Source of the DNA: Callorhinchus milii | Lineage: Eukaryota | NCBI RefSeq assembly: GCF_018977255.1 | Contig: NW_024704742.1 | Location: 47,494,001 to 47,558,000 of the forward strand | DNA length: 64,000 nucleotides | Reading direction: 5' to 3' | Shown: positions 13,738 through 64,000 of the stretch, piece after piece | Layout of the letters: every line of letters begins with the position of its first letter | Position numbering within the stretch: the stretch's first letter is position 1 | Program-made: the position numbers and the translations under genes | Notes under the pieces: generated by a model | Databases searched by the model: none | What the model was told of the DNA's origin: nothing | The model's input: only the letters and a program-made list of their open reading frames with translations

Positions 13738-13835
13738 GGCAGTTTGTTTTCTTGTAGTTATTGTCTCCTGCCCTTCTCCAGCTGACGTATATTTCACTTG
13801 TTTCCTCAGGCTATTTTGTTCAAATAATTGAAAAA

Positions 13836-13860
13836 ACTGAAACAAAAGAAAAATATAAAT
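13836..13860 (-). other. Splice acceptor of the TLR1 coding exon
   Basis: Minus strand TTTTTCTTTTGTTTCAG|, exon starts at 13836, 99 nt before the ATG; implies upstream non-coding exon(s). Confidence 0.7.
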
Positions 13861-15269
13861 CATTATTATTGTATCTTTAGAACAATATACAGATTATCCT
13901 AATTATTTAATATATTTCATGAAATAACGTTTGTGAAAACTCACAATGACAACAATAGAATGAAAGATGTAGTGTAAAAGTAGACATTGATTGTCTAAAT
14001 TTATTATTCAAAACTTAAATGACAAGTTGATTAAATGTTGAAATTGCTGAAAGTGAATATTTTTTAAAAAGTCACTACAAATCCTACAATAGTTCACTTA
14101 TTAATCAACACTTACTGTCCCAACATTTTCCTGTTCAGGAGGTCCTATGCCACTATTTGAAAAGACAAGGGAGTTTCTCCTGGTGTCCTGGCCAACACTC
14201 TCCCAAATAAAAAAAAAGCTCATTCAGGTTTTAAGCTGTTTATCGGACATTGCTCGGCGCAAATTGACTGTTGCGTTCACCTATAAAATGCATAGTCCCC
14301 ACACCTTACAATGAATCCTGTGAAATCCTTTGAGATGTTCTCCCAACTTGAAAGGTGATATATAAAATTGAAGGATTATTATTATTAATAAATCACTGTG
14401 CACTATTCAGGGCTACTGTGCGGAGCTATTGGTAATCTGGTGATGCAATAAGCAATATAAAGTCATCATAGCCTTTTAGAATTGCCCAGATTCTAATTTA
14501 ATGTATGTTCCTTGGGGCAGCAATTACACTGTACTCCAGCATTGAGTAGCTCCATCCCCTTGCATGCTCACAAAATGCCACAAGCTTGTTGATAAGAGTA
14601 GCTAGGCTGTGAAAGGGACCCTTTCATTACCAGCCTTGGATCTGCTCCACTTCTCCTGACTTGCTGGCATTTCCTATTGTAGGTTATTGCCATCCTCCAC
14701 CCCCTTTGATATAAAGAGACAGTAACTTCATATTAGAATTTATAATGTTCATTCAGTATTGGAAACAAAACATTTCTGAGGTATTGTATATTGAAGTGTA
14801 GAGTATTTACATGTTTTTAAATCAGATCTGATTGGTTCTTTAATATCAGACCAAACATTTTTAATACAACTTTTTCAATAAACGCATGATTATACTGTAT
14901 ATTTTTTCAATGTAATAGTGATTATCTAGCAGCTGTAAATATAAACATAATCAGATTTTTTTCACGCACAGCTCTCCGGACTAGGCTCCATGATCCTATC
15001 ACCCTGTCCTCACTCGGCTCCATTGGCTCCTGATCCCCCAACCCATCGAGTTCAAGATCCTCACCCTCACCTTTAAAACCCTTCTCACTCAACCTTACCT
15101 CTGCAACCTCCTTCAACCCTACCAGACCCAGCCACTTCCTCTGCTAGCACTAGCCTGTTTCATATCCCCTCAACCCTATCCTCCGCTACATCATCGGAGC
15201 GGGCTTTTGGTTTTCTACCCCTGCTCTCTGGAACTCCAACCGGGAGTTCCTCCGACTCTCTCCCTCCCA

Positions 15270-16969: not shown

Positions 16970-17345
16970 TGTGGGCGAACGCGCGGCCAACAGCAACTTT
17001 GTGTTGTTGTTGCTGTTGGAGGTGAAAGAGATGAAGTTGAGACATCGCGCCCTCTGTTCAAATCTCCCGCCCCGTCCGCGGGGCGCGGCGCTGATTGGTG
17101 GACGTCGCGGAGGAGGCGGAGGGAGGAGGGGGAGGAGTCCGCCTATTTCCGGTGGGGCAGCGCTTGTCCCTGTGCGCGCGCGCGCGCGCGTGGGGTGGGT
17201 GGGGGGGATGGGTCTGGTCTGTCGACGTGGCGGAGTGGAAGTGCGGGGGGCGGGGCCTGGGGGGGAGCGCGAGGACAGCACAGCACAGCACAGTGGGGCT
17301 GACAGGTGAGTCTCGAGAGTCGGGTTTAAAACCTAACGGCCTTGG
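16970..17345 (+). promoter_or_regulatory. FAM114A1: CpG-island promoter and non-coding exon 1 of FAM114A1
   Basis: High GC and CpG density; GC boxes (CCCGCCCC about 17066, GGGGCGGGG about 17247), reverse CCAAT (CTGATTGG 17091), Ets-like TTCCGG; strong donor CAG|GTGAGT at 17305/17306. Confidence 0.75.
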
Positions 17346-17360
17346 CCTGGGCTCGAGCTC

Positions 17361-18358
17361 ACAGCCCCCCCCCCCCCCCCGCGGCCACAGCCACAGCCCC
17401 CCCCCCCCCCCCCGCGGCCACAGCCACAGCCCCCCCCCCCCCCCCCCCCCCGGCCACAGCCCGCCCCCCAGCCCTGCCCCTGCCCTGCCCTGCCCCCCCC
17501 CCAGCCCTGCCCTGCCTCCCCTGCCCCGCCCTGTCCTGCCCCCCCCAGCCCTGCCCTGCCCCCCCGCCCTGCCTCCCCTGCCCTGTCCTGTCCCCCCTGC
17601 CCTGTCCTGTCCTGCCCCCCCTGTCCTGCCCCCCTGTCCTGCCCCCCCTGCCCTGTCCTGCCCCCCTGCCCTGTCCTGCCCTGCCCTGTCCTGCCCCCCC
17701 TGCCCTGTCCTGCCCCCCTGCCCTGTCCTGCCCCCCTGCCCTGTCCTGCCTGCCCTGTCCTGCCCCCCTGCCCTGTCCTGCCCCCCCTGCCCTGTCCTGC
17801 CCCCCCTGCCCTGTCCTGCCCCCCTGCCCTGTCCTGCCCCCCCTGCCCTGTCCTGCCCCCCCTGCCCTGTCCTGCCCCCCCTGCCCTGTCCTGCCCCCCG
17901 CCCCCCCCCCTGCCCTGTCCTGCCCCCCCTGCCCTGTCCTGCCCGTCCTGCCCTGTCCTGCCCCCCCTGCCCTGTCCTGCCTGCCCTGTCCTGCCCCCCT
18001 GCCCTGTCCTGCCCTGTCCTGCCCCCCTGTCCTGCCCCCCCTGTCCTTTCCTGCCCCCCTGCCCTGCCCTGTCCTGCCCCCCCTGCCCTGTCCTGCCCCC
18101 CCTGCCCTGTCCTGCCCCCCTGCCCTGTCCTGCCCCCCCGCCCTGTCCTGCCTGCCCTGCCCTGCCCTGTCCTGCCACCCCCTGCCCTGCCCCCCCTGCC
18201 CTGTCCTGCCCTGTCCTGCCCCCCCTGCCCTGTCCTGCCTGCCCTGTCCTGCCCCCCTGCCCTGCCCTGTCCTGCCCCCCTGCCCTGTCCTGCCTGCCCT
18301 GTCCTGCCCCCCTGCCCTGCCCTGCCCCCCTGCCCTGTCCTGCCCCCCCTGCCCTGCT
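17361..18358. repeat. About 1 kb C-rich minisatellite (CCCTG/TCCTG/CCCCCCTG units)
   Basis: Directly visible; the minus strand reads GGGCAGGACAGGGCAGGGGGG repeatedly. Confidence 0.97.
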
Positions 18359-20179
18359 CCGGCACCAGCTTCTCGCCGACTTCGCGTGATTTATTCGAAG
18401 GTTTTTGCGGCTGTTTTGTGGCTCTCACCCCCCACCCCCCTTCCCCCCCAAAAAATATAACCCCTCACCAATTGCTCTCTTGTTTCGTCCTTCCCGTCAA
18501 AAGTTTCACGACTGCCGTTATATTATTATTACGAGTTCACAGCCGAGGTCGCTGCCCCGAGCGAGTGTCTGGACCCCGATGATGGTGATAAGGACAACAA
18601 CAATGGCGACAACAATAATAATAATAATAAGAATAATAATCCTTGTATTCGGTACAGAGCCTCATCACCGGGTCCAGACGTCTCAAAAGCGCTTCGCGGG
18701 TTAGTTACGTTGTAAAGTGCAGTGACCTCCGTGTGTTTTGCGGGTGAAATCTATTCCGAGCCTCAGCCTCCGTTTATATAGCGGCTTTATATCGGCCTTT
18801 CTTTCAAGAGAGGGCGTCTCAAGGGACTTCCGCGGGGATTGATTCACCCCTTATTATTACTTTATCGCTTGATCTTTGAGGCTTTTGAAATAATAATAAT
18901 AATTAATGATAATAATAATCCTCGCCTTTGATATTGCGCTTTTTCACGTCCTCTCGACGTCTCAAAGCGCTTCACGGAATAGACTGTAAAGTGAATTGGC
19001 CGTATATTTTCTGGGCGAGTACTGTCGTTCAAGATACCACGGAGAATGATCAGTGCTCTCGGCCGCTATCCTGCGTGGAGGGGTTTGGCTGTATTGAGTG
19101 TTGGGATCATTCAGCGGCAACTGAAGAATTGGCACACGGCCGAGAAGATACTATCAAATCAAATCCTGTGCACGCATCAAATGCACAGAACCGTTAAACC
19201 AGTGGATAGTGAGGTGGGAACCGATTGATGGGGACAGATCTGGAAATGAGTGCTAATGTTTAAATGGACTGATACTGGTCAGTTGCCTGAGAACTGAACA
19301 GAGGTAGAAATACACAAAAACAGCCCATACATTTCCAACCAACTTGTGCCTGTGTTTGTACTCCACACGAGCCTCCCTCCCTCTCTGTACTGCTCAATTC
19401 GCTTTGCTCTCGTAATTCCAATCCTCTAACCCCTCCGTTCCCTTTTTTGGGCAAAGTACCAGCGGGCAGGCAGCTTGTGTCATCTAAATGTACCACAGTT
19501 TGAGAAAATAATTCAATACACCTTCAAGGACAGACCAGACGGGGAGGGAAAAAATTGATTGGTGAAAAGGTCATTTTTAAAGCATCACAATGGCATCCAA
19601 AAATTGCTCCACCACTGCAAAGGCAGAAGTATCCGTGACATAAATGTTCTTTCTCCAGAGAATATCCTGTACATCAAGCAGGGTTGCAAGAACTCAGACC
19701 TGAGATCTTGCCAGAGCCAACCAAATAGCATACACGAGATTCGCGGAGATGATGTTTATATCTCTGGAGTTTTTATCAGTTGCCACGTAGGGGTTATAAC
19801 ATTCAGCCTTTTTTTAACCACTACTGCGGTTAGCACTTGGCAATGTTTTGACATGACGCGGTGCTGTACCAACTACAAATTATTGTACATTATTGTGATT
19901 TCCTTTGCCAAATGGTTAATCAAAAGCTAGTTTGCATATGTGAGCATGATAAATGGAGGACTTTGATGCACTCTATTTTTTAAATGTACATTTATATTTA
20001 AGAAATGTCAAATGCCACGACTTGAACAGACTTGAAGAGCTGAATGGCCTCCTCTGGTTTTCCTCTAATTGTTCAGACCAAAAGCAAGATAAAATAAAGA
20101 TGCGTTTTGATTAAAAATAATGGGTATAAGTTATGAAGCATTCTGTGACTAAACATTTGTTTGATAGGTATGATTGGCA

Positions 20180-40034
<19,855 letters not shown>

Positions 40035-42020: not shown

Positions 42021-43032
42021 AATACGTGTATTTTTCAGCGCCTCCAATTTTTCCACAAAGGAAGTTCAAGGTTAAGGTGTGAGGTTTATCACTCCAGTAG
42101 CTTTACGTCCATATTTTGACCCAAAATGCAACACAAGAAACTAAATTGTGTGAAGCCTTCAAATTTTCACATAGGAAATCTTTCACATGGGAATATCTGT
42201 GCAAGCATCTTCCTTAGCATTGAAGCTGGATAAGTATCATAGAATCATACAGAATTATACAGCACGGAAGGAGGCAATTCGGCCCATCATGTCTGTGCCG
42301 GCTCTTTAAAAAGTGCTATCCAAATCAATCCCACTACCCCACTCTCCCCATAGCCCTGCAAACTTGTCCTCCCCCAAATAATTACTCTCTTAAAAGTTGT
42401 TACCGAATCGACTTCCATCACCTTGTCAGGTAATGCATTCCAGATCCGAACAACTCGCTGCGTGAAAAAATTTCTCCTCACCTCCCCTCTGTTTCTTTTA
42501 ACAGCTATTTTAAATTGGTGTCCTCTGGTTACCGACCCAACCGCCAGTGAAAATAGTTTCTCCTTGTTCACCCTATCACTCATAATTTTGAAAACTTCTA
42601 TTAAGTCTCCTCTTAACCTCCTCTTCTCCAAGGAGAATAATCCCAGCTTCTCTAGCCTCTCCTGATAACTGAAGTCCTTTATTCCTGGTACCATCCTGGC
42701 AAATCTCCTTTGCACCCTCTCCAATGCCTTGACATCCTTCCTAAAGTGTGGGGCCCAGAACTGAACACAGTCTTGAACTGAGTCTAACCGGTGTTTAATA
42801 AAGCTTCATCGTAACTTCCTGACCTTTGTATTCTATGCCCCTATTTATAAAGCCTTGTATCCCATATGCTTTTTTAACAGCTTTATCTGCCTGTCCTGCC
42901 ACCTTCAAAGATTTACTTATATGAACCCCCAGGTCTCTCTGTTCCTTCACCCCCTTTAAGATTGTACCATCAGCTTATATTGCCTCTCCTCATTCTTCCT
43001 CCCAAAATGCATCACATCATATTTCTCCACAT

Positions 43033-43205
43033 TAACAACAACAACAAGATTACATTTATAGAGCGCCTTTCACGTCGGGAGGACGTCCCAAGGCACTGGA
43101 CAGTTGGGTTAGGACTCGAGCCTTGGGGGGAAAATGGTCAGGGTGAAGGGAGGGAACAAGGAGGGGATAGAGAGTCGAGAGGGGAGCTGAAGGCACGGTC
43201 AAAGA
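43033..43205 (-). mobile_element. Short L2 3' tail nested in CR1
   Basis: (AAC)n AAGATTACATTTATAGAGCGCCTTTCACGTCGGGAGGACGTCCCAAGG. Confidence 0.85.
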
Positions 43206-43754
43206 GAACTTCATCAGCCACCTGTCCGCCCATTTTAACACTCTGTATGTCCTCTTGCAGTTTGCTACTATCCTCCTCGCTGTTAATTACTTTAGTAATG
43301 AACTTACTAGCTTAGTATCATCTGCATCTACAGGAAAAGTGTACTCCCTATACTCAAGTCCAGGTCATTTATACGGATCAAAAACAGCAGTGGTGCCAAT
43401 ACCGACACTGAGGGATACCACTGCACACTTCCCTCCAGTCAGAAAAACAACCATTCACCACCACTCCCTGCTTTCGGTCTTCCAGACAGTTCTGTATCCA
43501 TACTGCCACTGTCGCTTTAATACAGTGGACTTCTATTTTGCTTACAAGTCATATGTGGCACTTTATCAAACGCCTTTTGAAAATCTATATAAACTACATC
43601 AACTTCACTACCTTCATCCACCCTCTCTGTTACTTCATCAAAAAACTCTTATTAGGTTTGTTTGACATGATTTGCCTTTAACAAATCCATGTTGGTTGTC
43701 CTTTATTAACCCATATTTTTCTAAGTGAAAATTTATTTTGTCCTGGATTATAGC

Positions 43755-45250
43755 CCTAAAAACAGCTGTCATCACCCCATCCTGAAAAAACCTTCCCGGA
43801 CCCATCCCTACTTTCCAGCTACTGCCCGATCTCTAATCTCCCATTCCTCTCCAAGGTTCTGGATCGAGTCATCGCTTCCCAGCTCCGCTCCTTTCTCGCC
43901 ATTCCCTCTTTGAACCCCTCCAATCCAGCTTCTGCACTGCCCACAGCACGGAAACAGCGCTGGTCAAAGTGACTAATAACATTCTGAACATCTGTGATCA
44001 GGGCTCCATCTGCCTCCTTGTCCTCCTCGACCTCTCTGTCACCTTTGACACTGTTGACCACTCCATCCTCATATACCACCTCTCCTCCTTACTTAATCTT
44101 CACGGACCTGCCCTTGCCTGTTTCGATTCCTATCTCTCTCACCATCTCCACTTTGTTGCCTCTAATGGTTTCTCCTACAGCCCCCGCACTGTCACGTCTG
44201 GCATCCCCCAGGGCTCTGTCCTTGGCCCTCTCCTCTTTAATATCTACATGCTCCCCCTTGGTGACATCATCCGCAAACATGGGGTCAACTTCCATATGTA
44301 TGCAGATGACACCCAACTCTATCTTTCTGCCTCCACCCTCAACTCCAGGACCACTGCTGTCCTGACAGAATGTCTGTCGGACATCAAGTCCTGGATGAGG
44401 GAAAATTTCCTACAGTTGAATGTGAACAAGACTGAGGCCCTCCTGATCGGCTCACGCCAGCGCCTCAGCACCTCAGACTCTGGCAACATCAACCTCCATG
44501 GTTGCACACTTCAACTCACCAGCCAGTCAGGGACCTGGTGTCTTGTTCGATCCTCAACTGTCTTTTCTTCCCCACATTCAAGCCATGACCCACTCTGCCT
44601 TCCCTCACCTCCGCAACATCGCCCGACTCCGCCATTGCCTCACCTCTCAGGCCGCTGAAACTCTTGTTCATGCCTTCATCACCTCCAGGCTCGACTGCAA
44701 ACTCCCTTCTTGTCAGCCTTCCCAACTCCTCCCTCCACAGGCTGCAGATAATCCAGAACTGTGCAGCCCGTGTCCTCTTCCGCACCAAACTCCGTGACCC
44801 AATTTCCCCCATTCTTTCCCGACTCCATTGGCTCCCTATCCTTCAAAATCCTGGTCCTCACCTACAAAGCCCTCCGTGGCCTCACCCCACCCTACCTTTG
44901 TGACCCCCTAACCCCCTACCAACCTGTCCGCTTCCTCTGCTCAGCCGGCTCTGGCCTGCTCCACGTCCCCCGACCCACCCGCCCCACCATTGGCAGGAGA
45001 GCCTTCAGCCACTCTGCCCCCAACCTCTGGAACTCCATCCCCCAATCACCCCGCCTCACCCCTTCCTTAGCCTCCTTCAAGTCCCACCTCAAGACCCTCC
45101 TCTTCGACCATGCCATCGGCCACCCCCCTTCCCCTCCCCTCTTCCCCCTGACTCCAGCTTGGGTCTGAAATGCTGTACACTGTCCAGCACCTTGGGACGT
45201 CCTCCCAACATGAAAGGCACGATACAAATGTAATCTTGTTGTCGTTGTTG
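43755..45250 (+). mobile_element. L2 LINE with RT domain, frameshifted, nested in CR1
   Basis: LLDLSVTFDTVDH...[17 protein letters not shown]...MYADDTQLY; (TTG)n-like tail. Confidence 0.92.
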
Positions 45251-47384
45251 GAGTCTCTAGAAGTTTCCTGACTACCGATAGGCTGACTGGCCTGTCGTTC
45301 CTGAGTTTATCCTTCTGTCCCTTTTTGTACAGGGGAGTAACATTTGCAATCTTCCAGTCTGGCACTACCCCGGTGTCCAAGGAGGATTGAAAGATTGTGG
45401 CCAGAGCCTCTGTTATTTCCACACTTACTTCCCTCACTAATAGGATAAATCCTGTCCGGACCGGGTGACTCATCCAACTTGAGCCCAACAACCTTTTTAG
45501 TACCTCCTCTCGGTTTATTCGTATCTTATCCAATTATTTTCTCTATCCTCTCCTCCAATACTGTGGCATTGGCTGCATCCTCTTCTTTTGTGAAGACAGA
45601 TGCAAAGTGCTCATTCAGTATGTCAGCCATGCCCTCTGTTTGCTCAGGAAGATTTCCTTTTTGGTAGCTCTTAAAAGAAAACCAAAAGAATTAAGGCCGT
45701 ATTTTAATTTTGCAAGTTTTAAAATGCAATGTTAATGGAGTAAATCTAGGCCTAGTTGGAATTTTGCCTCTAATTGTTGAATACAAATATTTTTAAAGAT
45801 GAAACAAATTAAGGCATGGAAATGTCACGGTTAGGTATGGTGAAAATATTAAGCATCATCAAAATTATTAAAAATGACAGATATGATTTGTTGGTAACTA
45901 AGTTACGTTTATGCAGTATTTCTAGGCAAACAAAAATATGGTAACACAAAATAATTTTTCTTTTTCCCCGTATTTCTTTTATGGTCCTGACATCCTAAAG
46001 TCAGATGCCAAAACTGGATATAATACTGTAACTACGGTCTAACTATGTTATACAAGCTTCACCCGTTCGTTTTATATTTTATGTTTGTACTTATAAAACC
46101 CAGGATTCCTTTGGGTTTCTTCACAGCTTTGTCCAACTTGTTTTCCCATCTTTAACTCCTAGGTCTCTGCTCCTCAATTCTATTCAGCACATACTCAGCC
46201 TCATTATTCTTCCTTCTAAAATATTTAACCTTTTTCTGCATTAAATTTTATCTGCAATCTCCGTGCCCAATCTATTAGTGATTCCGTATCCTGAAGTTGC
46301 TTATGTAAGATCCCTTTAGTTATTACAAATGTATTTTTCAAATTTTATTTGAAGAGCATGTATTAACATAAATCAATAACATACAAAAAAATCTGAATTC
46401 ATAGTGCATAGAAGAATATCATTCACCATTAAACCCAATTTGTATTTTCCACTTCATCTAATTTAGCTTAAAATCAGATGTGTTGTAAACGGGTCATAAT
46501 GGAATTTATATCCCTTTCATGGTGGTCACGATAACTCATTTGTGATTTTTGGTGCTTTATGAGTCAACACATCAGGCCACTTAGAATATAAATTGTATCT
46601 CACGGGCTTGATGTATCCAGTATTTATCTGATCTTGGGGTTTTTTCGGAGCACGTTGACCTTTGCATATCTAAAAAAAATTTAGAGGAACTATTCAAAAA
46701 GCTTATAAATATAGGAGCAATGATTTTATGACTTTGCCTCTTTAGGATTTTATGCTGAGTGTGCACTGAAAACTATTTGTGGTTGCTCCCAGCATTGAAC
46801 AGATTAGGAATAGGAAGATTAATTTGTAATGTTGAGGATAGTTGTGTGCTGCATACTATTTGGATTTTAAAGTTATTACCGTAGTCAGCTATTGCAACTA
46901 ACCCTTTAATAACATTGAAAATGGTCCCTTAAAAGCTCTTGATTTTTTTAAAGAACCTTTTTTGATGTGACTCCCCTATTAGTTCTCATACCTCCAACTT
47001 TCACACTCACAACTGTTTCCTTGCCTCTCTTACCATTTTTCTCTCAGTGATGTTCCCACCATCTTTCACTTTCCTCTCATACTGTTTTATTAGTTCCTCC
47101 CACTGTTTTCCATTCCTTATACTCCCTCATTCATATTATAATTCACTATCTTGTCCCACTCTCCCTTTTTTTGACTGAGAGTTTGAGCTTTTCGCAGGGA
47201 CTGCTTTTGAACAGTAAACAGTTGTGGTACCAGAAGAACAGGTTGAACACCTCTTTTCCTCCCTGCCCTCTTTCTCGCACCCCCCACGCACCCATAAATT
47301 TTATTCTCAATCTGGTTGAAGCATTTCCCAATTGATTATTTTGAAGAAAAAGAGCTGTTTATGATGTTAAACAACCAATTAGTA

Positions 47385-51084: not shown

Positions 51085-52213
51085 GGCTTTTCCTCCGGCC
51101 CCCGCACTGTCTCATGTGGTGTCCCTCAGGGCTCTGACCTCGGTCCCCTCCTCTTCACCCTCTATATGCTCCCCCTTGTTGACATCATCCGCAGACATGG
51201 AGTTAACTTCCTCATGTATACGGATGACACCCAACTCTACCTTTCCTCCTCTACCCTCAACTCCATGACCACCGATGTCCTGACAGCTGCCTGTCCGACA
51301 TCGAGTCCTGGACGAGAGATAACTTTCTTCAGCTCAACGTGCAAAAAACTGAGGCCCTCCTGATTGGCTCACGTCAGCGCCTCCGCACCTCAGGCGCTGA
51401 CAGCATCAGCATCCAAGGCTGCACTCTCCACCTCTCAAAGCCGCTCAGGAACCTCGGTGTTCTGTTCGACCCTGAGCTGTTCTTTCTCCCCCATATCCGC
51501 GCCACAACTGGCACCGCCTTCCATCACCTCCGGAATGTCGCCAGACTATGGCATTACCTCACCCCTCACGCTGCTGAAACTCTGGTCCACACCTTCATCA
51601 CCTCAAGGCTGGACTACGGGAACTCTCTCCTCGCCGGCCTTCCCGCCACCTCCCTCCACACGCTGCAGGTCATTCAGAACTCTGCAGCTCGTGTACTGTC
51701 CCGCACCAGGCTTCGGGAACACATCACTCCCACCCTCGCTCGCCTCCACTGGCTCCCCATCCCCCAGAGGATCGAATTCAAGATCCTCACCCTCACCTAC
51801 AAGGCCATTCACGGCCTCGCTCCCTCCTACCTCTCCGACCTACTATCCCCCTACCTACCTGCCCGTACCCTCCATTCCTCTGGCTCCGGTCTGCTCCACA
51901 TCCCCCGCCCCAACCGCCCTACCATCGGTGGTCGGGCCTTCAGCCTCTCAGCCCCGAGGCTCTGGAACTCCATCCCCCAGTGCCTTCGCCGCCTCCTCCC
52001 TTTCCTCCTTCAAGGCCGGTCTCAAGACCTTTCTCTTTGACCGAGCCTTCAGCTCCCCTCTCGACTCTCTACCCCCTCCTCGCTCCCTCCCTTCCCTCCC
52101 CTCACCCTGACCAAGTCCCCCCTGCTCGGGTCCTGACCAACTGTACAGCGCCTTGGGACATCCTCCCGACGTGAAAGGAGCTCTATAAATGGAATCTTGT
52201 TGTTGTTGTTGTT
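51085..52213 (+). mobile_element. Young L2 LINE 3' part
   Basis: [13 protein letters not shown]...YTDDTQLY; 233-aa ORF2 C-terminal segment; (TTG)n tail. Confidence 0.92.
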
Positions 52214-53319: not shown

Positions 53320-55125
53320 TTAGAAAGAATGTACAGCACAGAAACGGGCCCAGCCAGTCCGCTCTGGCGTACTCCACACGAGTCTCCATCCATTTCTTTA
53401 CTCCCTCCCATAACCTTCTATTCTCCTCTCCCTCATGTCCAGCTTCCTCTTGAATGCATCTACACTATCTGATTCAACCACCGCTTCATGCAGCGAGTTC
53501 CACAATCTCACTGCCCTCTGTGTGAAGTAGTTTCTCCTAAATTCTCTTTTTCATCCACTTGTCGCTATTTTATAATTGTGTCCCCGGTTATGCAGTCCCC
53601 AACCAGTGGGGACAGCCTATTTATGTTAACCTTAACAAACCCTTTAATGAATTCAAACATTTCTGTTAATGCCCCCTTAAACAAAATAAGACCTAACCTA
53701 TCCAGTCTATCCGAATAGCAGTAGCCTGGCATGCCTTGATGTCATCCTATTTATTATATATTACAATAAATATATGATAAATACATAATATATAACATTC
53801 CACTTTATTATATATTCTGTGAAGTGCTTTGAGACATCTCAACGACATGATAAAAACACTATCAAATACAAGGATTATTATTATTATATTATCCTAGTAA
53901 GACAATGCTATACTCTTTCCATCACTGCTATATCCCTCCTATAGTGTGGAGACCAGAATTGTGGTCTAACCATGGTTTTGTATAAATTCAACTTCACATC
54001 CTCTAATATAAAGCTCAAGATCCCATCGGCCTTTTTTTCATAGCCTTATATTGTTACTTTGAGTGATTTCTGGTCTTAAACCCCAGATTTCTTTGCTCCT
54101 ATACTCCTCTTAGGTTCCTGTCTAGACTCTAGACAGTTTCTTTACTTTTCCTGCCAAAGTGAATTACTTCACATTTTCCTACATTAATCATAATTTGTCA
54201 TTTAAATACCCATTCTGCCAGAATGTTTATGTCTTCCTGCATTCTTCTGCAATCCCCTTCACTCTTTGCCCCACCTCTCCCCCTCCCAGTTTGGTGTTAT
54301 CTGCAAATTTTGATACCACACTTCTTATACCTGAATCCAAATAATTTATGTATATGATGTACAGTAGCAATACTAACACAGATCCCTGAAGAACACAACT
54401 CCCACCCTCGCTCGCCTCCACTGGCTCCCCATCCCCAGAGGATCGATTTCAAGATCCTCATCCTCACCTACAAGGCCATTCATGGCCTCGCTCCCTCCTA
54501 CCTCTCTGACCTACTATCCCCCTACCTACCTGCCCGTACCCTCCATTCCTCTGGCTCCGGTCTGCTCCACATCCCCCGCCCCAACCGCCCTACCATCGGT
54601 GGCCGGGCCTTCAGCCTCTCAGCCCCGAGGCTCTGGAACTCTATCCCCCAGTGCCTTCGCCGCCTCCTCCCTTTACTCCTTCAAGGCCGGTCTCAAGACC
54701 TTTCTCTTTGACCGAGCCTTCGGCTCCCCTCTCGACTCTCTACCCTCTTCTCGCTCCCTCCCTTCCGTCCCCTCACCCTGACCATTTCCCCCCTGCTCGG
54801 GTCCTGACCCAACTGTACAGCGCCTTGGGACGTCCTCCCGACGTGAAATGCGCTCTATAAATGGAATCTTGTTGTTGTTGTTGTTGTATTACTTCTTTCC
54901 AGCCTGAGAAGATACCCTTAACTCCTACCCTTTGCTTTTGGTCTCCTAAGCATTCTTTAATCCATTCTGCTACCTCTCCCACAATTCCACATGCCCTTAT
55001 TTTAGTCATGAGCGTCTTATGTGACACTTTATCAAAAGCTTTCCAGAAATCCAGATACACTACATCCACTTCATTTTCCTCATCCAGTAAGGTTGGTCAA
55101 GCATGACCTTCCTTTTGCTGTTCTT
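53320..55125 (-). mobile_element. Degenerate CR1 LINE with nested SINE tail (about 53800-53885) and L2 (54398-54885)
   Basis: DVVYLDFWKAFDKVSH; SKFADNTKLGG; GSVL motifs. Confidence 0.85.
54398..54885 (+). mobile_element. Young 5'-truncated L2, near-identical to 51726-52213
   Basis: Comparison by eye shows only scattered substitutions over about 490 bp. Confidence 0.9.
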
Positions 55126-55779
55126 ATTTATATCACAGAGACAACATAGAAACCCCAAACAAGGCAGGAGATGGAGGCGAGTGAAGGTGCAGTGAAAGGG
55201 GGGGGGGGAATTAAAAAGTCTTCTGAAGGCAGGGAACAGATGGTGCGATATGACAAAATTCTGGGAGACAATTTCAGAGAGTAGAGATAAAGGGCCAAAA
55301 GTTCACCCAGCATCGGAAAGGAAGAGAAGGGCATCGAACATGGAGTTGGAAGAGCAGAGGCAGGGGAGTGGGACTTCAGGAGATCCCAGAGGTAGGATTG
55401 GGCAAGAGAGGCACAAGTGGTCACATCTGAGTGTGAATGGTGGGTGTTGATAGGCTATTTAACTGCAAGGGGAATTGCAGCCAAACCCAATGCTCTTTTC
55501 ATCTAAAGAACTTGCATATATCTTCAGACAGAGGAGATGGATACTGGCTCCCTAATTGATTTTGCCCTCACTAATATAGAGATCTGAAGCCACATTTAGC
55601 ACCTCAGGTACAACCCCAGCATGATCCACCAACTCAAAACACACTCAGTATAGAAATGTGGGATCTTCCCATAAACTTGCCCAGTTTTGGCAATCACTTT
55701 TAAGTTTGCTTTTTTTTTTTCCCTTTACCAAAAATGGATGTTAGACCTCAAGAACCACTTCAGTTGTTTTATACATAGT

Positions 55780-55973
55780 TCAGCCTGGAAAGTTAGACTC
55801 AGTTCGCTGAGGGTTTATCCAAACAACAGAACTAGACGGACCTCCCAAAACGGGGCTAATGAGCACAGAACTGGCAGCTCTTACAAGTATAGACTTTTTT
55901 TTCTTCTTGCGTGCAGCATTATTGTGTGTCTCACTGTCCGAACACGCTTGAGATATCTGTCGGAGTGGTATGG
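55780..55973 (-). CDS. Putative terminal exon of the unrecognised gene
   Basis: Strong acceptor TTTTCTTTCTCCTCAG|; [35 protein letters not shown]...NFPG*. Confidence 0.6.
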
Positions 55974-58900
55974 CTGAGGAGAAAGAAAATAATATTAGTC
56001 CAGGTAACCAGATAAGTTTGTAGACATAACTGACATATTGGGGGTTGTTTTGTGATTTCATTTCCAAATGTATTGTTGTGGATTATGTGATATTCATTGG
56101 TTAGTTATATGAAATTGTACATATAAATTACTATGTAATGCAATAGAATTATGTAATTTAATGTTATATTTATAAATTCACCGTAATCTCAAAGAGACCT
56201 AACAGTTCAGATCAGGTGGAAGAACTAAGTTGCATTGAACTAAGTCTCTGGATATTGATCCAAAGTGACTGACCTTTAAAATAATCTGTACCAACTGAAT
56301 GCACAAGCGTAACAAAGGGATCACACAGTTTTGAGCCTTTGCTCTCGCTTATCATGCCACAGTTCTTTCTCATTATACTTTTGGTTAATGTGGCAAAGGA
56401 TTATGTTTTTCAGTCAGTGTGAATTGTTTGATAATTCCTTTCAAAAAGAACCACAGAAATAAGTTTAGTAATTAAATTACCTGAAGGATGATTATTCGTC
56501 AGAAAGTTTTCTTGGACGGTAAGCACGTTAGCATATTCAGCTGCTTCAATATCATCACTGGCTGGTCGCTGTAAACTTTTCCATGGCAATGTGGAGTCGC
56601 TCATTTCTTCACATTTAAAAAAGTGATACAATTTAGGTTAGGTTTATTATTTTGACTACTATCATATTCAGAAATGATTAAGCAAACAGGTACACTCTTG
56701 TTGACCCATGAGTCACCTAAATTGACTTTCACAAGCCTGAAACTTTTTTGGGGGAGGGAGGAATTATTACCCCAGGAAAGCATCTGCCAATCGAATAGCA
56801 ACCAGATTCCTACTTACTGCCAGGTAAGTGGAGTAAGGAAACTTGCCTAAGGTTTTTTCCTGTTTTTTCCTGATTCTCAATCTGTGTCAAGTTAGTTAAT
56901 CTCCCCTCGGGCAACATTTGAAGCACTTTATTTGGCTTCAAATTTCTCCACGTTATGAGTAAAATAAATTAACCACTTAGTTTCATTCTCCCAATTGCTA
57001 TCCACTGTTGTACTGTGGGTGCGTGTGGTTGTTGGGTGAGAACAGAATCAGGCTCAGTTGTGATTCCTTCCACAGTTGAAAGTTGTGATTCCTTGACAAT
57101 CATTGTCTGGACTCACACGTGAAGAATAATCGCTTGGACAAGGTCTTAGGAGAGTTGTTGGTGCCCTTGGAGCTGAACTTGGCAAGGTTCAGTATTTTAA
57201 TAGAAAAAGTGGAAGAGAAAATTGCCGGGAAGTAGAAAATTCTCATTAAATAATTCATTCAAAACTTCAATCAAAATTTAGCAAAAAGCATTCATAGCCA
57301 AGGATCCTTTGATTATAAAATGTGGTTCACTGTGCTTATCAGCATTTCGCATACCCAAAGTCCCAGTGGCAAAGTGAGGCATCCCACAAACACATCATGT
57401 ACAATATAGTTGCCTCCACTCTGCCTAACAATAAGCAATATTGCCATCCTCAGAACAGCACTGTCTTCTGCAACAAACATTATTTAAAAAGCTTGAATGG
57501 TCTCACCAGATAAAAAGCTCTAAATGAGATGAGATAAAGTATATGTTATCATGTTAGCAGGGTTACAGAAACTAGAATCAGGAATTACATGAATTAGAAT
57601 AATCAGGAGCTGCAGACATATCTGATTGATGTAACCCATTATTTTTTTAGTGATGGTATCAGTTGGGTAATTTTGCAGAAACCTACACCAGACTTAAAAA
57701 TATCCAAACTAGACAAGAAATCCACTCAAATATGCTATCTATGAATGGAAATGTTCATGCGTCTGGAATGTGCACTCTCCCCCTGGAGAGATGCAACCTA
57801 CATACCTAATTCCAGAAAATATTTGGTGCAGGTTAGTGAGAGCCAAGGCTTGGAACCTGAATGTATGCCTAGGATAAACACATTTTAATAAGCTAAAATT
57901 ACACAGCTTGCTATTGAGAGTACCAGCTGGAAAGCTTCCTGTTGCTTGTCCAGCTGGGATAACCTTATCTGTAAGGGCATTGGTATGCTGGGTATAAGAG
58001 CCTAGTGGAAAAAAATGACTGCCTTAGTGATCAGTCTGCCCCTCCAAGTCTGCTGATAAGGCAGGCTGACTGGTCTGTCATCAGCAACACCTTGGAGACC
58101 TGCTTGTCTGCCTGACTGAGGAATTGGACTGCTGAAACGCCACAGAAGATTGGCTGTGAGGTGTGTCACCTTGGAGGTAGCTCAGCCCCAAGGAGACCTT
58201 GTTTACTGAGCAATACAGCTTAGCATGAAATGTGTAACAGAAATGTCACCATCCTCCTGCCCACAGCTTAGATACATATCCCTACCTATTGAGCAAAGGT
58301 TCGACCTGTTGGAAGTGCAGTGCTTGACCAGCAAGTTCAGGATCCGCATTCTCACCTTCAATTCCCTCCACAGTCTTGCCCCACCCTACCTCTGTAACCT
58401 CCTTCAACCCTAAAGACCTGTCTGCTCCCCTCACTCAGCAAACATCAGCCTGTTTCATGTCCCCCAACCTAATTGCCTCACTATTGGCAAGCAAGCTTTC
58501 AGCCATTTCAGCCCTGCTTTCTAGAACTCCATCCCACAGTCCAGCCAACTCACTCCCCACATTCAAAGCTCATCTCAAGACATACCTCTTTGACCATGCT
58601 TTCAGTCATCTTTCCCCTCCCCATCCCCTTGAGCTCCCAACCCCAACTCGGCTGCCCAGTCACCATATCAAGTACTTTGAAGGGCCCTCCTGACATGAAA
58701 GGCACCTTATAACAATAACAAATTGTATTGTAAAATACTGCAGTGGGTGAATTCCAGAATGAGAGAACTTTTTGTTCGTTCTTGGCCCAAAAGCATCAAT
58801 ACAAAAATTTGCTTCTACTGAAGACAGAACAAAGAACAAAATAATCCGACATTCGGGAAAGTGGTTATTTGTGAAAATACCTTCAACATTTGATGAATGA

Positions 58901-61900
58901 TGTTCATGTTCAAATGTTATAGACAGTTTCCTGTTTTTGTAAGACATCACATCTGCTTGAGAAAACATACAAAAATATTACTTGCCAGTCACCACTGTAG
59001 GTATTCTCCATAGTAGTTCTTGCATTAACGCAAAATCTAAGAAAAGTGTAGCATGTGTGTATTTTGTAGACAAAGGCAGCAGCCAATTTGTACACAGCAA
59101 TGTTCCTTAGACAGCCATGAATTATATGACAAATTTTACTTATATTTAATATCCTGTTTAATTGTGAATGTATATTTAGAATATTAATAATATTATTATA
59201 ATAATAATTGTGAATATTGTAAACACACCGCAGTACAGAAGTCATTGGCACACCTTACTTGACTTGAAGCTACTAATTACCTGAAAATTCATTCCAATTT
59301 TATATACTGTATATATAAATGCAAAGATCGAGTTGTGTCACCACTCTACGAGCCTCAAACAAGATCTTTGCATAAACATACTGGATAATTAGGAGCTAAT
59401 TAAGTGCAATCATAATATAGGAAAATCCATATGCATAAATAAAATCTGTGCAGGAAACTGTTGATTGCATCTGAAAGCTATGGTGAAGTACCTAAATTCG
59501 CATAAGTGGGCACTGTAGTTTCTGTTGATTGAATCTCACTGGAAGTAGTTAAATGATCTGCGGGCCAGGTCTCATTTTCTTCCTGTTGAATATCATTGGC
59601 GTATAAACTGGATTCATCATCCAATAATCCAATGCAATTATAATCCAAGTTTTCACCTGCATTGAAAAAAATGATCACTAACATTGACAAAGGAATGGAT
59701 TTGCCACTGTGGGCATAACAAAACAGAGGGTATATAGGACATCATCTGTATATGGGGTATATAGGCCTCTCCTCTTACCTCAACCTTCAAGGTTCTGTCC
59801 TTGAATGGTTCTATCTCTCACACCGGCTCCACTTTGTCTCCACAAATGGCTTCTCCTCCAGCTCCCACACCATCTCATGTGGTGTTCCTCAGGGCTCTGT
59901 CCTCGGTCCTCTCCACTTCAAACTCACCTTCAAGGCCCTCCATGGTCTTGCCCCCTCCTACCTCTCCGACCTGCTAACTCCTTATCAACCTGTCCACTCC
60001 CTCCACTCAGCAGCCTCCGGCCTGTTCCTTGTCCCTCCGGTTGGCCCGCTCCACCGACGGCGGTCGGGCATTCAGCCTCTCTGCCCCCACTCTATGGAAC
60101 TCCATTCCACATTCCCTTTGCTTCACTCCCTCCTTTGCCTCCTTCAAGGCTCGTCTCAAGACCCTCCTCTTTGACCGAGCCTTCGGCCAACCTCCTTCCC
60201 CGCTCTCCACTGTCCCTGATCCCAACCCCCCGCTAAGGTCTTAATCCCTGAGAGTTCAGCATCTAGGGACGTCCTCCTGACATGAAAGGTGCCTTTTAAA
60301 TGTAATTTTGTATTGTGTCATGTTCAGCAAACTTAAGAAAGTACAAAGTTATAATTCATATTTTTTTTAAAAAAAGGATCAGGAACAAATATTCTACATT
60401 AATATCTCCTTTTTTTAAGTATAAATCAGTGTGTGGCTTCTACCAAAGCCTTTGAAGTCTTTGGTTGATGCTCTTACTCACATCACTGGGGATAGGAACA
60501 TTGGATCAGTAACTTTACACAGCAGTTTCAACTATAACAACCCATAGCATCTATATACATAAAAGAACAGCAAAATTACATTTATATAGCGCCTTTCACA
60601 TCGGGAGGACGTCCCAAGGTACTGAACCATCTTGAATATGATGTTATGATTAATTAACAGAATATGATTAATTAGAAAGGTAGGGTCTAACTAAGTTTTC
60701 TAATGTGAATGTTTCTAATGTGAATGTTGTTATGTAGGCAAACACACCAGCTAATTTGCACCTCCATTATCCTAAAAACAACATTGGGATAAGTAGCCAA
60801 TAAACTACCCCATTGATCCTTGGTAAACCTATTTGCATACCATCATAAAAAAAATCACTGCATTTGATATAAGGCCTTAACACATTATCTAGAAATCTTA
60901 AAGGCTTTCACATGATATACTCTAAAGTGATGTGATAGTGTGTATTTTTTATTATTATTATTGATGACAAGATACATCCCAAGTCCCTTGTAAGAGAACA
61001 TAATTTCCTTAATGGTCAACGAGACTGATATGAATTCAAATTCAGTCCTCAGATTCACATTCCAAGAGAATGCTGCTTTTGACTCTCTGTAGCAAAGTCC
61101 TAAATTTACCTGAATGTTTATTCCTAGAATCCATTTATACTGAGGAAATACCTTTGCTAGTCGATGGCTCAATTCCAATATTAGAGAACTTCCTGCTTTT
61201 TCTTGGCTCAAAGACATTTGTAGTGAAGCTTTCTTCTGCTGAAAACAGGGAGATTAGAATTATCCAAAATTCTGGGAAATGGTTCAGAAATATGCAAATA
61301 AGAAAATATATTTTACTTGTGAAAATACCTTCAACATTTAATGGGCCATAATGCCATTCAGCTGCTGTAGACAGTTTTCTATATTTTTTTCCTTGAGAAA
61401 ATATAAACATTTAGTTGAGACTCACAACTGTAAGGTTTTCTCCACAGCAGCTTTTGCATTAATATGAAACTGAAGGATGTTTGAGACACAACAGAGTACA
61501 ACATTATCCAATATTCTAGGGTACAATTCAATAATATTAAAGAAAACATACTATGATTAGATAGAGGACATTATTCTGTCAAAGTCCCGTTGAAAAGACA
61601 GGAAGCTCTGGGGAATGTGAGAGCCTGGGGGAAGAGAGTAGACATGGCGAATGTAGGAGCTCAGGGGAATGCCAGAGACCTTGGAAAACCCAGATTATAA
61701 ACTTAAACCCTAGTCTGGGAATTGAACCCTCAATCTTCTGACCAGAAGGCATAATTCCACGAAAAATAAACTAAAATCACACTGCTCAGAAATATTTAGT
61801 GAAGCAATCAGTTTTGCTAATGAAATTACCTTCAACAGCTGGTCGATAGTTTTCATATTCGGATATGGTAACTAGTCTCCTGTTTTTGGAAGCCTTTATG

Positions 61901-61904
61901 TTTG
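55780..61904 (-). CDS. 3' part of an unrecognised multi-exon gene with a tyrosine-motif-rich hydrophilic C-terminus, at the TMEM156 syntenic position
   Basis: Exons 61830-61904, 61329-61391, 61152-61238, 59492-59656, 58881-58955, 56481-56606 and 55780-55973 have AG/GT ends. The six internal exons are 75/63/87/165/75/126 nt (phase 1-1) and splice into about 261 aa without a stop. Confidence 0.7.
56481..56606 (-). CDS. Exon D of the unrecognised gene (EYANV motif)
   Basis: Branch-like CCTAAC, ...[54 protein letters not shown]. Confidence 0.7.
57760..58200 (-). mobile_element. Third copy of the structured repeat of 47385-47785
   Basis: Reverse complement shares GGTCTCCT..AAGGTGACA..AGCCAATC.TCTGTGGC..CAGCTGGACAAGCA..CTGGAATTAGGT. 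Confidence 0.65.
58325..58720 (+). mobile_element. L2 LINE 3' fragment
   Basis: [38 protein letters not shown]; tail. Confidence 0.8.
58881..58955 (-). CDS. Exon A'' of the unrecognised gene (duplicated module)
   Basis: [42 protein letters not shown], 75 nt. Confidence 0.65.
59492..59656 (-). CDS. Exon C of the unrecognised gene (LDYNCI, LYAND, TYANL motifs)
   Basis: [38 protein letters not shown]...[14 protein letters not shown], 165 nt. Confidence 0.75.
59765..60320 (+). mobile_element. L2 LINE fragment with a large internal deletion
   Basis: [11 protein letters not shown] joined almost directly to [18 protein letters not shown]; tail. Confidence 0.85.
61152..61238 (-). CDS. Exon B of the unrecognised gene
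   Basis: [48 protein letters not shown], 87 nt. Confidence 0.7.
61329..61391 (-). CDS. Exon A' of the unrecognised gene
   Basis: [38 protein letters not shown], 63 nt. Confidence 0.7.
61830..61904 (-). CDS. Exon A of the unrecognised gene (EYENY motif)
   Basis: [42 protein letters not shown], 75 nt. Confidence 0.7.
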
Positions 61905-62380
61905 CTTGAGAAAACACACACAAGTAATTCAATTGAGATTCACACGGAAGATATCATTTTGCACAGTAGCCCGCATCAACACAACACAAAATATATAGGA
62001 AAATATATTTTCCTATACCTTTCTATTTAATGATCTGTTTCCATTTTGAAATAACATATTTTGCTTACTTTTTTCCACTAGTTCCACTTTTTCCAAGAAG
62101 CATTAGTATGGCCTAATTGTTTTTTTTGTGAGGGGAATTCCCTCCCTCCCACACCCCACCCACTACAAGAATCAATCAAATTTCAAAACACTCATATTTA
62201 AAAGTGAAAGTAGCTTGATCTGATTCCCGGTGTCAAAGACTCACACAACACCATTCAAATTCCTGCTCCTCAAACTACCAAAAGGCAGCACAGGTACCAG
62301 ACCATTCAGTAATGACTTCATGATCAATGATTAATCCAATAAATATAACCAAGAGCAGTTAAATCTGCATTCCTGGTCTT

Positions 62381-62718
62381 AATAATAATAATCCTTGCAT
62401 TTAATATAATGTCTTATCAAGTCTTCGAGACGTCTCAAAGTGCTTCACATAGTATATTGTAAAGTGAATTGTCTGCATATTTTGTGGGCAAAACAGGACA
62501 GCCAGTTGCATACAGCAATGTCCCACAAACAGTCGTGGATTGAAGTGACCAACTTATTACTATTATTATTTTTTGAAGCGATCCTCCAACTGGGTTCCTA
62601 CTTACTGCTGGGTAAACAGAGACGCCTGGAGTAAGAAAACTTGCCTAAGGTTTCACCCCCGCCGGGAATCAAACCCAAGTCCTCTCGCTTGCGAGGCGAG
62701 TATTGTAACCACTACAGG
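62381..62718 (-). mobile_element. tRNA(Ala)-headed SINE
   Basis: Reverse complement of the 29933 family. Confidence 0.8.
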
Positions 62719-63809
62719 GCAGATCTTTAGCCAAAAGGCTGAGAAGTGATCCCTGATCGTACTTCTAAAAGATAATTGTATCAAGTTGAATGAAAAACCA
62801 AAATGATACACAAATTGCTTTGCTTGCTTCTTGTGCAAACTTATTGTGGTGTATATCATTTGCACATGATACAAGGAATTGTGTTTACCTCTATTTACTG
62901 AAAAAGCAGATCCAAGCAATTTCCATCATCCAAAAGAATAGTGCAAAAATTTAAACTTTGGGAGATTAAATTTATTGATCTGTCAGTCACTAACCTCTGA
63001 GTAATACACAAATTACAGTTTGCTTATGATTTGATTGAGCAGTTTCTTCATTGCACAAAGGTGGAAAGAAGCAGTAAAACACCTTAATGAAGTTTCATGC
63101 CATTCTGGAGAGAATTGAATTAAAATCTTGAAAAATTGTTTTACAGCACTGAAAGGGCAGCCACAAAGGAGCAGGGAGACAAAAGGCTAAAAGTGGAGAT
63201 CAGAGAGAAAATGTGGTCAGTTACTTGGCTTTCACGTCTAACTCTTGAGCGACAAAAGAAAGTGAATTGGTCTAACCTATAAATATGAAGCTTCATCATT
63301 TGCACTTTAATAATATTTTTTAATAATATTCACCAACAAAATATAGTCAATTCACTTTACAGTATATTCTGTGAACCACTTTGAGACGTCTCAATGATGT
63401 GATAAGGCGCTATATCAAATTCAGGGATTCTTATTATTATGAGAAGTGATACATTACACAAAAAATTGGTTTAAAAATAATTTACAAAGATAGTCTGTAC
63501 ATTTCAGTTAGTTTTTTTAAAAGAAATAAAGATAGATTATATTTTTAACGTCCTTCCATGCAACACATCATTCATAAGCTGTGCAGGCAAACTGCTCCTA
63601 GCTCCTCTTAATGCTGCAATGTAACTGCCCGTGAGATATGCACAAGGGCAGCCTAAGGTGAATTATATTGTGATTTTTTCTCTCCCTTTCTGTAATGAAA
63701 TTCCTTATCTCACCTCTGCTTGGCACCTCAATCTAATGACCCCATTGATGGGAACTCAGCATGCACGGTGCGAGCGGCTTTTGCTCACCCTGAGGCCACG
63801 CTGTTGTCA

Positions 63810-64000
63810 TTGTTTGTGTGTGTCTCTCTCTCCTCTGTAGGTATTTGTGAGTGTTTCTATGAGAGTGTGTCTGAGTGTGTGTGTGAGTGTGTATCTCTCT
63901 GTGTCTGTGAGTGTTTGTGTGTGTCTATAAGTGTTTATCTCTGCGTGTGTCTCTCTCTCCTTGTCTATGAGAGTGTGTCCCACTCTGTGTCTGTGAGTGT
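63810..64000. repeat. GT/CT-rich low-complexity simple repeat
   Basis: Degenerate (GT)n, (CT)n and GAGTGT units. Confidence 0.85.

Follow-up and report, generated by a model that had tools for sequence, protein, structure and literature searches.

LOC103175892 of Callorhinchus milii: a predicted type I receptor with a tyrosine-motif tail grown by exon duplication, at the syntenic position of TMEM156

What kind of protein is encoded by the short minus-strand exons at positions 55780-61904 of a 64,000-nucleotide stretch of the Callorhinchus milii genome, and what could its array of tyrosine motifs be for? The whole stretch is called the window here; its position 1 corresponds to position 47,494,001 of contig NW_024704742.1, and gene coordinates past 64000 continue the same numbering. 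A first-pass annotation, made from the letters of the window, had described the exons as an unrecognised gene coding for a multi-tyrosine signalling tail. The gene is in fact annotated by NCBI, as the uncharacterized LOC103175892, and the answer put forward here, to which we give a probability of roughly 0.6, is that it encodes a type I receptor with a disordered tail that, once phosphorylated, would dock SH2 adaptors of the GRB2 family.

All seven exons of the first-pass annotation are found on the minus strand at the positions it proposed, with AG acceptors preceded by a pyrimidine tract, a GT donor on every exon but the terminal one and all joins in phase 1. The internal exons A, B, C, D, E and G measure 75, 63, 87, 165, 75 and 126 nt, all multiples of three, and together with the last exon, H, they splice into 785 nt, corresponding to 260 codons and a stop. 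The motifs that had been listed for the spliced peptide can all be read in it, namely the YxN motifs EYENY, LYAND, TYANL, SYKNR and EYANV, the LDYNCI site and the basophilic sites RKLS and RKFS. Six of the seven exons are common to both NCBI models of the gene: A (61904-61830, with EYENY), C (61238-61152, with RKFS), D (59656-59492, with TYANL), E (58955-58881, with SYKNR and RKLS), G (56606-56481, phase 1-1, with EYANV and ending in HPS) and the last coding exon H (55973-55780, 194 nt, with a poly-lysine stretch, the C-terminus and the stop codon at 55782-55780). The boundaries differ slightly, in that the older NCBI model extends exon A by 12 nt to a GC donor (61818) instead of ending it at the GT at 61830, and in that the NCBI models enter exon E at 58952, 3 nt further in at a tandem NAGNAG acceptor, which drops one alanine. 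Exon B (61391-61329, 63 nt), a paralogue of A and E, lies between AG and GT and reads through in phase 1, but it is used in neither NCBI model, which leaves it an unsupported candidate cassette exon. Exon B apart, the chain of exons is more than a chance product, since the NCBI models share it and the tail is homologous to shark proteins; what the first-pass annotation had missed is an alternative first coding exon at 62321-62279. No canonical AATAAA occurs within 0.8 kb of the stop codon and the first ATTAAA lies at 54961, hence the 3' end is not defined. An Rfam scan of 55000-64000 gave no match.

Of 7 candidates in a search of longer proteins with exon D, a single one matched, entitled "uncharacterized protein LOC103175892 [Callorhinchus milii]". 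The current NCBI model of this gene, XP_042196097.1, has 253 aa and consists of the exon at 62321-62279 followed by A, C, D, E, G and H. Its start exon contributes 14 codons from an ATG at 62321, which an in-frame TAA precedes by four codons; since the surrounding 141 nt (62240-62380, minus strand) have two more copies in the genome with 74-75% identity (C1:112151726 and C2:107836616), the sequence suggests a repeat-derived exon or promoter. An older RefSeq model of the same locus, XP_007887375.1, sits in the 90% cluster of XP_042196097.1 and has 631 aa. It can be rebuilt exactly from the present assembly as 13 minus-strand exons joined by 12 introns, all of phase 1, spanning about 29 kb (C1:47549780-47578777). 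Upstream of the window these comprise a signal exon at 84777-84690 (C1:47578690-47578777), three ectodomain exons at 77872-77579, 73602-73291 and 72126-71989, a transmembrane exon at 71055-70945 (C1:47564945-47565055), a copy of exon D called D' at 65146-64997 (C1:47558997-47559146) and an A-type exon, e7, at 64756-64685; the remaining exons are A, with its GC donor, C, D, E, G and H. Hydrophobic segments of the 631-aa form are confined, in Kyte-Doolittle windows, to residues 1-28 and 283-307. Between them lies an ectodomain of about 280 aa with 16 N-x-S/T sequons and 11 cysteines, and behind them a hydrophilic tail of about 320 aa. The long form is thus probably a type I membrane glycoprotein with a signal peptide, a cysteine- and sequon-rich ectodomain, one transmembrane helix and a cytoplasmic tail. 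The first-pass annotation had read the exons as a signalling tail and had identified neither a transmembrane segment nor the 5' part in the window; in the 631-aa model, which supports the reading as a cytoplasmic tail, both lie beyond position 64000. For the 253-aa form the Atlas model suggests disorder (predicted local distance difference test score, pLDDT, of 0.38; predicted template modelling score, pTM, of 0.09).

The gene is not confined to C. milii. When residues 1-314 of the 631-aa model, covering the ectodomain and the transmembrane segment, were used as query with an expectation value (E) of at most 10, six proteins were found among 313 candidates, all of them named "uncharacterized". 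Three match over the whole query with E values of 6.6e-87 to 5.9e-79, namely a 316-aa protein of Mobula birostris (49% identity), the 518-aa product of Scyliorhinus canicula LOC119962984 (48%) and the 447-aa product of Cetorhinus maximus LOC144683384 (48%). The other three are models from Heterodontus francisci, one of 256 aa that covers 74% of the query at 48% identity (E 2.6e-58) and two, of 305 and 348 aa, that each cover 18% of it at 70% identity. The clusters of these matches add Mobula hypostoma and further isoforms, so that proteins of the family are known from six species, every one named "uncharacterized"; the ectodomain has 293-307 residues across four species. In Scyliorhinus, Cetorhinus and Heterodontus (for the latter in models of 305-374 aa) the conserved transmembrane segment is followed by tails, 134-297 residues long, that show homology to the tail of C. 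milii. In BLASTP comparisons the 253-aa model aligns with the 348-aa Heterodontus protein over 129 aa (E 2e-7), with exons D, E and G in the same order; another alignment of this pair (E 7e-7) crosses the junction of G and H, and the 518-aa Scyliorhinus protein is matched with E 2e-4. Exon G aligns with shark exons bearing [DE]EY[AT]N[VI]...HPS or EY[AE]NFL, while the start of exon H aligns with '...SAVPSL...' of Heterodontus across the G/H junction. On the strength of these alignments LOC103175892 belongs to a conserved chondrichthyan family of uncharacterised, predicted type I glycoproteins. A profile of the family had no match among PDB sequences at E of at most 10, and an AlphaFold2 model of the Mobula birostris protein, built on a 5-sequence alignment, consists mostly of beta hairpins and is too poor for a fold search (mean pLDDT 38.6, pTM 0.34).

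The tyrosines of the tails are not placed at random. Counts of YxN were compared with 20,000 shuffles of each tail. In C. milii five of eight tyrosines stand in this motif (expected 0.65, p 1e-4), in Scyliorhinus five of nine (expected 0.78, p 2e-4), in Cetorhinus four of six (expected 0.39, p 1.5e-4) and in Heterodontus six of nine (expected 0.69, p 5e-5). The enrichment is about 8-fold in all four long tails, and the ectodomains contain 0-1 YxN among 5-9 tyrosines. Two YxN positions are common to the chimaera and the sharks. One lies in the D-type exon, where the motif '[VL]Y.N.IQ.E', read from the sequences by eye, is present in six of seven D-type copies, the exception being D' of C. milii; the other lies in the G-type or last exon and takes the form '[DE]EY[AT]N[VI]' or 'EY[AE]NFL'. 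Sequence comparison therefore supports a non-random YxN array that is conserved in sharks. Two further features which the first-pass annotation had attributed to the tail are not conserved. The LDYNCI site, which fits the consensus of an immunoreceptor tyrosine-based inhibitory motif (ITIM), is found in this species alone of the four, with none in Scyliorhinus or Heterodontus and a different site, ITYQGI, in Cetorhinus, and nothing like RKLS or RKFS is seen in those shark tails that were aligned.

How the tail came to hold so many motifs can be read from a self-comparison of the DNA of the gene. Identity is 80% between D' and D (103 nt), 73% between A and E with flanks included (106 nt), 71% between the regions of B and E (168 nt) and 69% between the region of C and a stretch called F' (123 nt). 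F' (58817-58738, minus strand) is a pseudo-exon and a copy of exon C, in which 80 nt are followed by 'ta' in place of a GT donor, and it is included in no model. The exons fall into an A type (e7, A, B and E), a C type (C and F') and a D type (D' and D), and the similarity of B to E and of C to F' indicates that B plus C and E plus F' are one duplicated two-exon unit. Since the exons are of phase 1-1, copies can be added without breaking the frame, and the copy number varies by species, Scyliorhinus having two near-identical D-type exons. Judged from these comparisons, the tail is assembled from small phase 1-1 exons duplicated in tandem, which would make the locus a clean example of phase-1 exon duplication producing a putative multivalent docking tail.

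Transcript evidence is thin and comes from Logan contigs of four sequencing runs (X1, X6, X7 and X8) whose RNA nature is presumed, and of which 32 of about 24,800 pieces were listed. A 308-nt contig of X1 joins 61150-61240 to 59438-59654 and thus contains the junction of C and D without the 1.5-kb intron, although its match extends 54 nt beyond the donor of exon D. A 594-nt contig of X1 fits with its first 100 nt only, on 61806-61905, the fit ending at the acceptor of exon A, and among the pieces listed no other part of it falls on 55000-64000. The end of exon H is covered by a 177-nt X1 contig (55659-55837). Among the pieces listed there is no contig on exon B or on junctions other than C-D, which is uninformative either way. 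The introns also hold interspersed repeats with tRNA-like heads and tails of short interspersed nuclear elements (SINEs), at 56806-57106, 60418-60718, 62224-62825 and 63127-63427, where the summed contig depth reaches thousands to more than 100,000 per bin in each of the four runs. Such repeats supply the greater part of the depth, and the majority of the joints listed are artefacts of them.

The phosphotyrosine motif pY-x-N is the ligand of GRB2-family SH2 domains, and acidic residues preceding the tyrosine suit tyrosine kinases. If the gene works as its motifs suggest, engagement of the ectodomain would be followed by phosphorylation of the tail by kinases of the Src or Syk type, the SH2 domains of GRB2, GADS or GRAP would dock on the resulting pYxN sites, and the tail would act as a multivalent scaffold like that of LAT or NTAL, fused to a real receptor ectodomain. 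LAT, NTAL/LAT2, LAX1, PAG1, LIME1 and SIT1 likewise have disordered tails with several acid-flanked YxN motifs, but these transmembrane adaptors have an ectodomain of a few residues, compared with about 280 aa here, and a juxtamembrane CxxC palmitoylation site, whereas the family of LOC103175892 has a single cysteine about 10 residues past the transmembrane segment (FK[EKR]D[SP]SC), replaced by serine in Heterodontus. Pfam scans gave no match to the families of these six adaptors, and the nearest Atlas feature cluster of the tail is that of the PAG/LIME1 transmembrane adaptors at 0.75, a lead only, as all Atlas scores stay below 0.8. Motifs of the type pY-x-N-[VIF] are also known from CD28 (YMNM), CD22 (YENV), SHC (YVNV) and HGAL/GCSAM, which have single GRB2 sites as opposed to an array of four to six obtained by exon duplication, with no homology beyond the motif; a weak match of HGAL to the Scyliorhinus tail is below threshold (E 0.12). 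The conserved [SIVL]xYxx[IVL] tail motif of ITIM-bearing inhibitory receptors is not a feature of the family. LAT, NTAL and similar multi-YxN scaffolds play a central part in signalling by antigen receptors, and how they arose is obscure. LOC103175892 and its relatives define a conserved cartilaginous-fish family of putative receptors that combine a YxN scaffold with an ectodomain of considerable size.

Several observations weigh against such a receptor. The current NCBI model starts inside the window and its 253 aa contain no hydrophobic segment, and the link between transmembrane segment and tail in C. milii rests on an older automatic model, on phase compatibility, on the shark models and on the one 594-nt contig. 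A search with ectodomain exon e3 (L002:9283-9555) among proteins of at least 161 aa gave no match and hence turned up no current model with this exon; the lack of a match is to be expected because the 631-aa model is not a cluster representative. Pfam scans of both C. milii models, the six orthologues and single exons or open reading frames (ORFs) placed no family above cut-off, and phmmer with the 253-aa model against 1.84 billion representatives returned the self-match only, the tail being too divergent for a blind search. D' has lost both of its tyrosines, in the alignment with Heterodontus a YxN faces a YxN at just two of four C. milii sites, and all models of the two Mobula species stop 12 residues after the juxtamembrane segment without any YxN, either because batoids have lost the tail or because the annotation is incomplete. 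The structure of the newer RefSeq model and the lack of a cluster-representative model of at least 161 aa with e3 would both suit a soluble, cytosolic tyrosine-phosphorylated adaptor of 253 aa that starts at 62321-62279, the upstream ectodomain and transmembrane exons being separate or decayed. We regard this as unlikely, because the ectodomain exons are intact and phase-compatible in the present assembly, because the long form is reproduced from it without a break and because three shark species attach a homologous tail to the transmembrane segment; the two diverged copies of the start exon region also speak for a repeat-derived exon, and the 494 further letters of the X1 contig that ends at the acceptor of exon A, unplaced among the pieces listed, add a weak point. 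We infer that the transmembrane segment and the tail are carried on one mRNA in C. milii, and a tail-only transcript may exist besides the receptor form. If the receptor is accepted, its tyrosines could still be YxxPhi sorting signals for AP-2 or AP-1, acting in endocytosis or lysosomal targeting instead of SH2 docking, as the hydrophobic +3 residue of YANV, YANL, YINV, YTNV, YANF and YANI would allow. At this position, however, the D-type motif that is conserved carries E, K or D (YAND, YLNE, YLNK, YFNK) and does not fit YxxPhi, so that asparagine at +2 is the feature common to the motifs, and this asparagine, present in four to six motifs per tail at about 8-fold enrichment, is not needed for binding sorting adaptor proteins; with the acidic residues before the tyrosine, which suit tyrosine kinases, this makes sorting signals an improbable explanation. 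Even less credit can be given to a drifting, non-functional product of exon duplication, in which a single ancestral motif was copied to give the present YxN motifs and these no longer serve a function. Tandem duplication, the dead F', the tyrosine-free D' and the tailless Mobula models would be in keeping with drift, but the motifs occur in non-paralogous exon types (A, D, E and G), the enrichment is significant in each of the four species, and motifs have been kept while the residues around them are about 28% identical, the chimaera and shark lineages having split in the Palaeozoic.

The relation of this predicted receptor to TMEM156 is a separate matter, on which position and sequence give different answers. 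LOC103175892, a minus-strand gene, is flanked by a FAM114A gene (24390-28456, plus strand, identified by its DUF719 exons) and a gene with a BACK-domain (KLHL-like) exon (C1:47649635, plus strand, from a genome profile scan), with RFC1 further on (C1:47752986, minus strand), which is the slot and the strand that the first-pass annotation had given for TMEM156; the strands presumably match the human order. TMEM156 has an N-terminal hydrophobic leader, a cysteine- and sequon-rich ectodomain and one transmembrane segment, and in mammals a short, tyrosine-poor tail. Leader, ectodomain and transmembrane segment are present here as well, but the tail is long in four species (130-320 aa with four to six YxN) and short in the Mobula models. 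The order reported for chicken is WDR19, RFC1, KLHL5, TMEM156, FAM114A1, TLR1B, TLR1A (PMC5767321), so that the gene shares with TMEM156 its place relative to TLR1, FAM114A1, KLHL5 and RFC1. The TMEM156 profile PF15106 stays below its Pfam gathering cut-off of 27 bits on all eight family proteins and matches none of four single-exon or ORF translations. Its best match, to the Cetorhinus protein, reaches 13.1 bits (E 0.061) and aligns residues 270-323 with profile positions 155-209, that is, colinearly on the last ectodomain cysteine and the transmembrane segment. A scan of the whole genome with the same profile gave one match, at E 0.104 in a low-complexity repeat on another chromosome (C4). 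The nearest Atlas clusters of the ectodomain are C17orf78/DUF4711 at 0.79, with TMEM156 at rank 5 and 0.76, all below the level of chance matches. It is thus quite possible, though short of an even chance, that a receptor specific to cartilaginous fishes and unrelated to TMEM156 occupies the interval, TMEM156 proper having been lost or having escaped detection. Set against the failing profile and cluster scores are the agreement of position and strand with the FAM114A/BACK/RFC1 setting seen in chicken, the colinear if weak PF15106 match, and a scan of 135 ORFs of at least 80 aa in 70 kb (about 64 kb upstream of the gene), in which Pfam recognised just two reverse-transcriptase fragments and no other gene. 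LOC103175892 is the sole candidate found at the syntenic position of TMEM156, from which it may descend.

We know of no function of TMEM156 in any vertebrate. A 2018 chicken study states that there was "no literature available" on it (PMC5767321), and a study on human tumours reports that its expression correlates with that of immune signalling genes (PMC8507526). Our literature search found no paper naming LOC103175892 and none pairing TMEM156 with 'cytoplasmic tail'. Should the orthology be true, the shark tail would indicate what TMEM156 once did. One tentative scenario, which we consider rather doubtful, is that TMEM156 began as a GRB2-coupled surface receptor by the TLR1 cluster, that chimaeras and sharks retain the original signalling tail in a form enlarged by exon duplication and that manta rays and tetrapods kept no more than the ectodomain and the transmembrane segment. 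If true, this would offer a first testable function for TMEM156 and would reveal a parallel to the LAT/NTAL scaffold, fused to a receptor, in those jawed vertebrates that are the oldest to have adaptive immunity.

The remainder of the window holds a gene of the TLR1/6 type (11347-13893, minus strand), whose single exon of 849 codons encodes leucine-rich repeats and a TIR domain. Two large plus-strand ORFs, at 20174-20560 and 26304-26690, have no Pfam match, the FAM114A gene having been identified through its DUF719 exons instead. Reverse-transcriptase-like ORFs and tails of SINEs and long interspersed nuclear elements lie between FAM114A and LOC103175892, at 42287-45533, 51228-52174 and 54358-55096. 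Finally, between the TLR and FAM114A genes there is a GC-rich repeat of about 1.5 kb (17058-18582) that has more than one open frame on either strand, with ORFs of 343-495 aa reading GGRTGQ... or PPCPVL..., and that looks like a minisatellite, not a gene.

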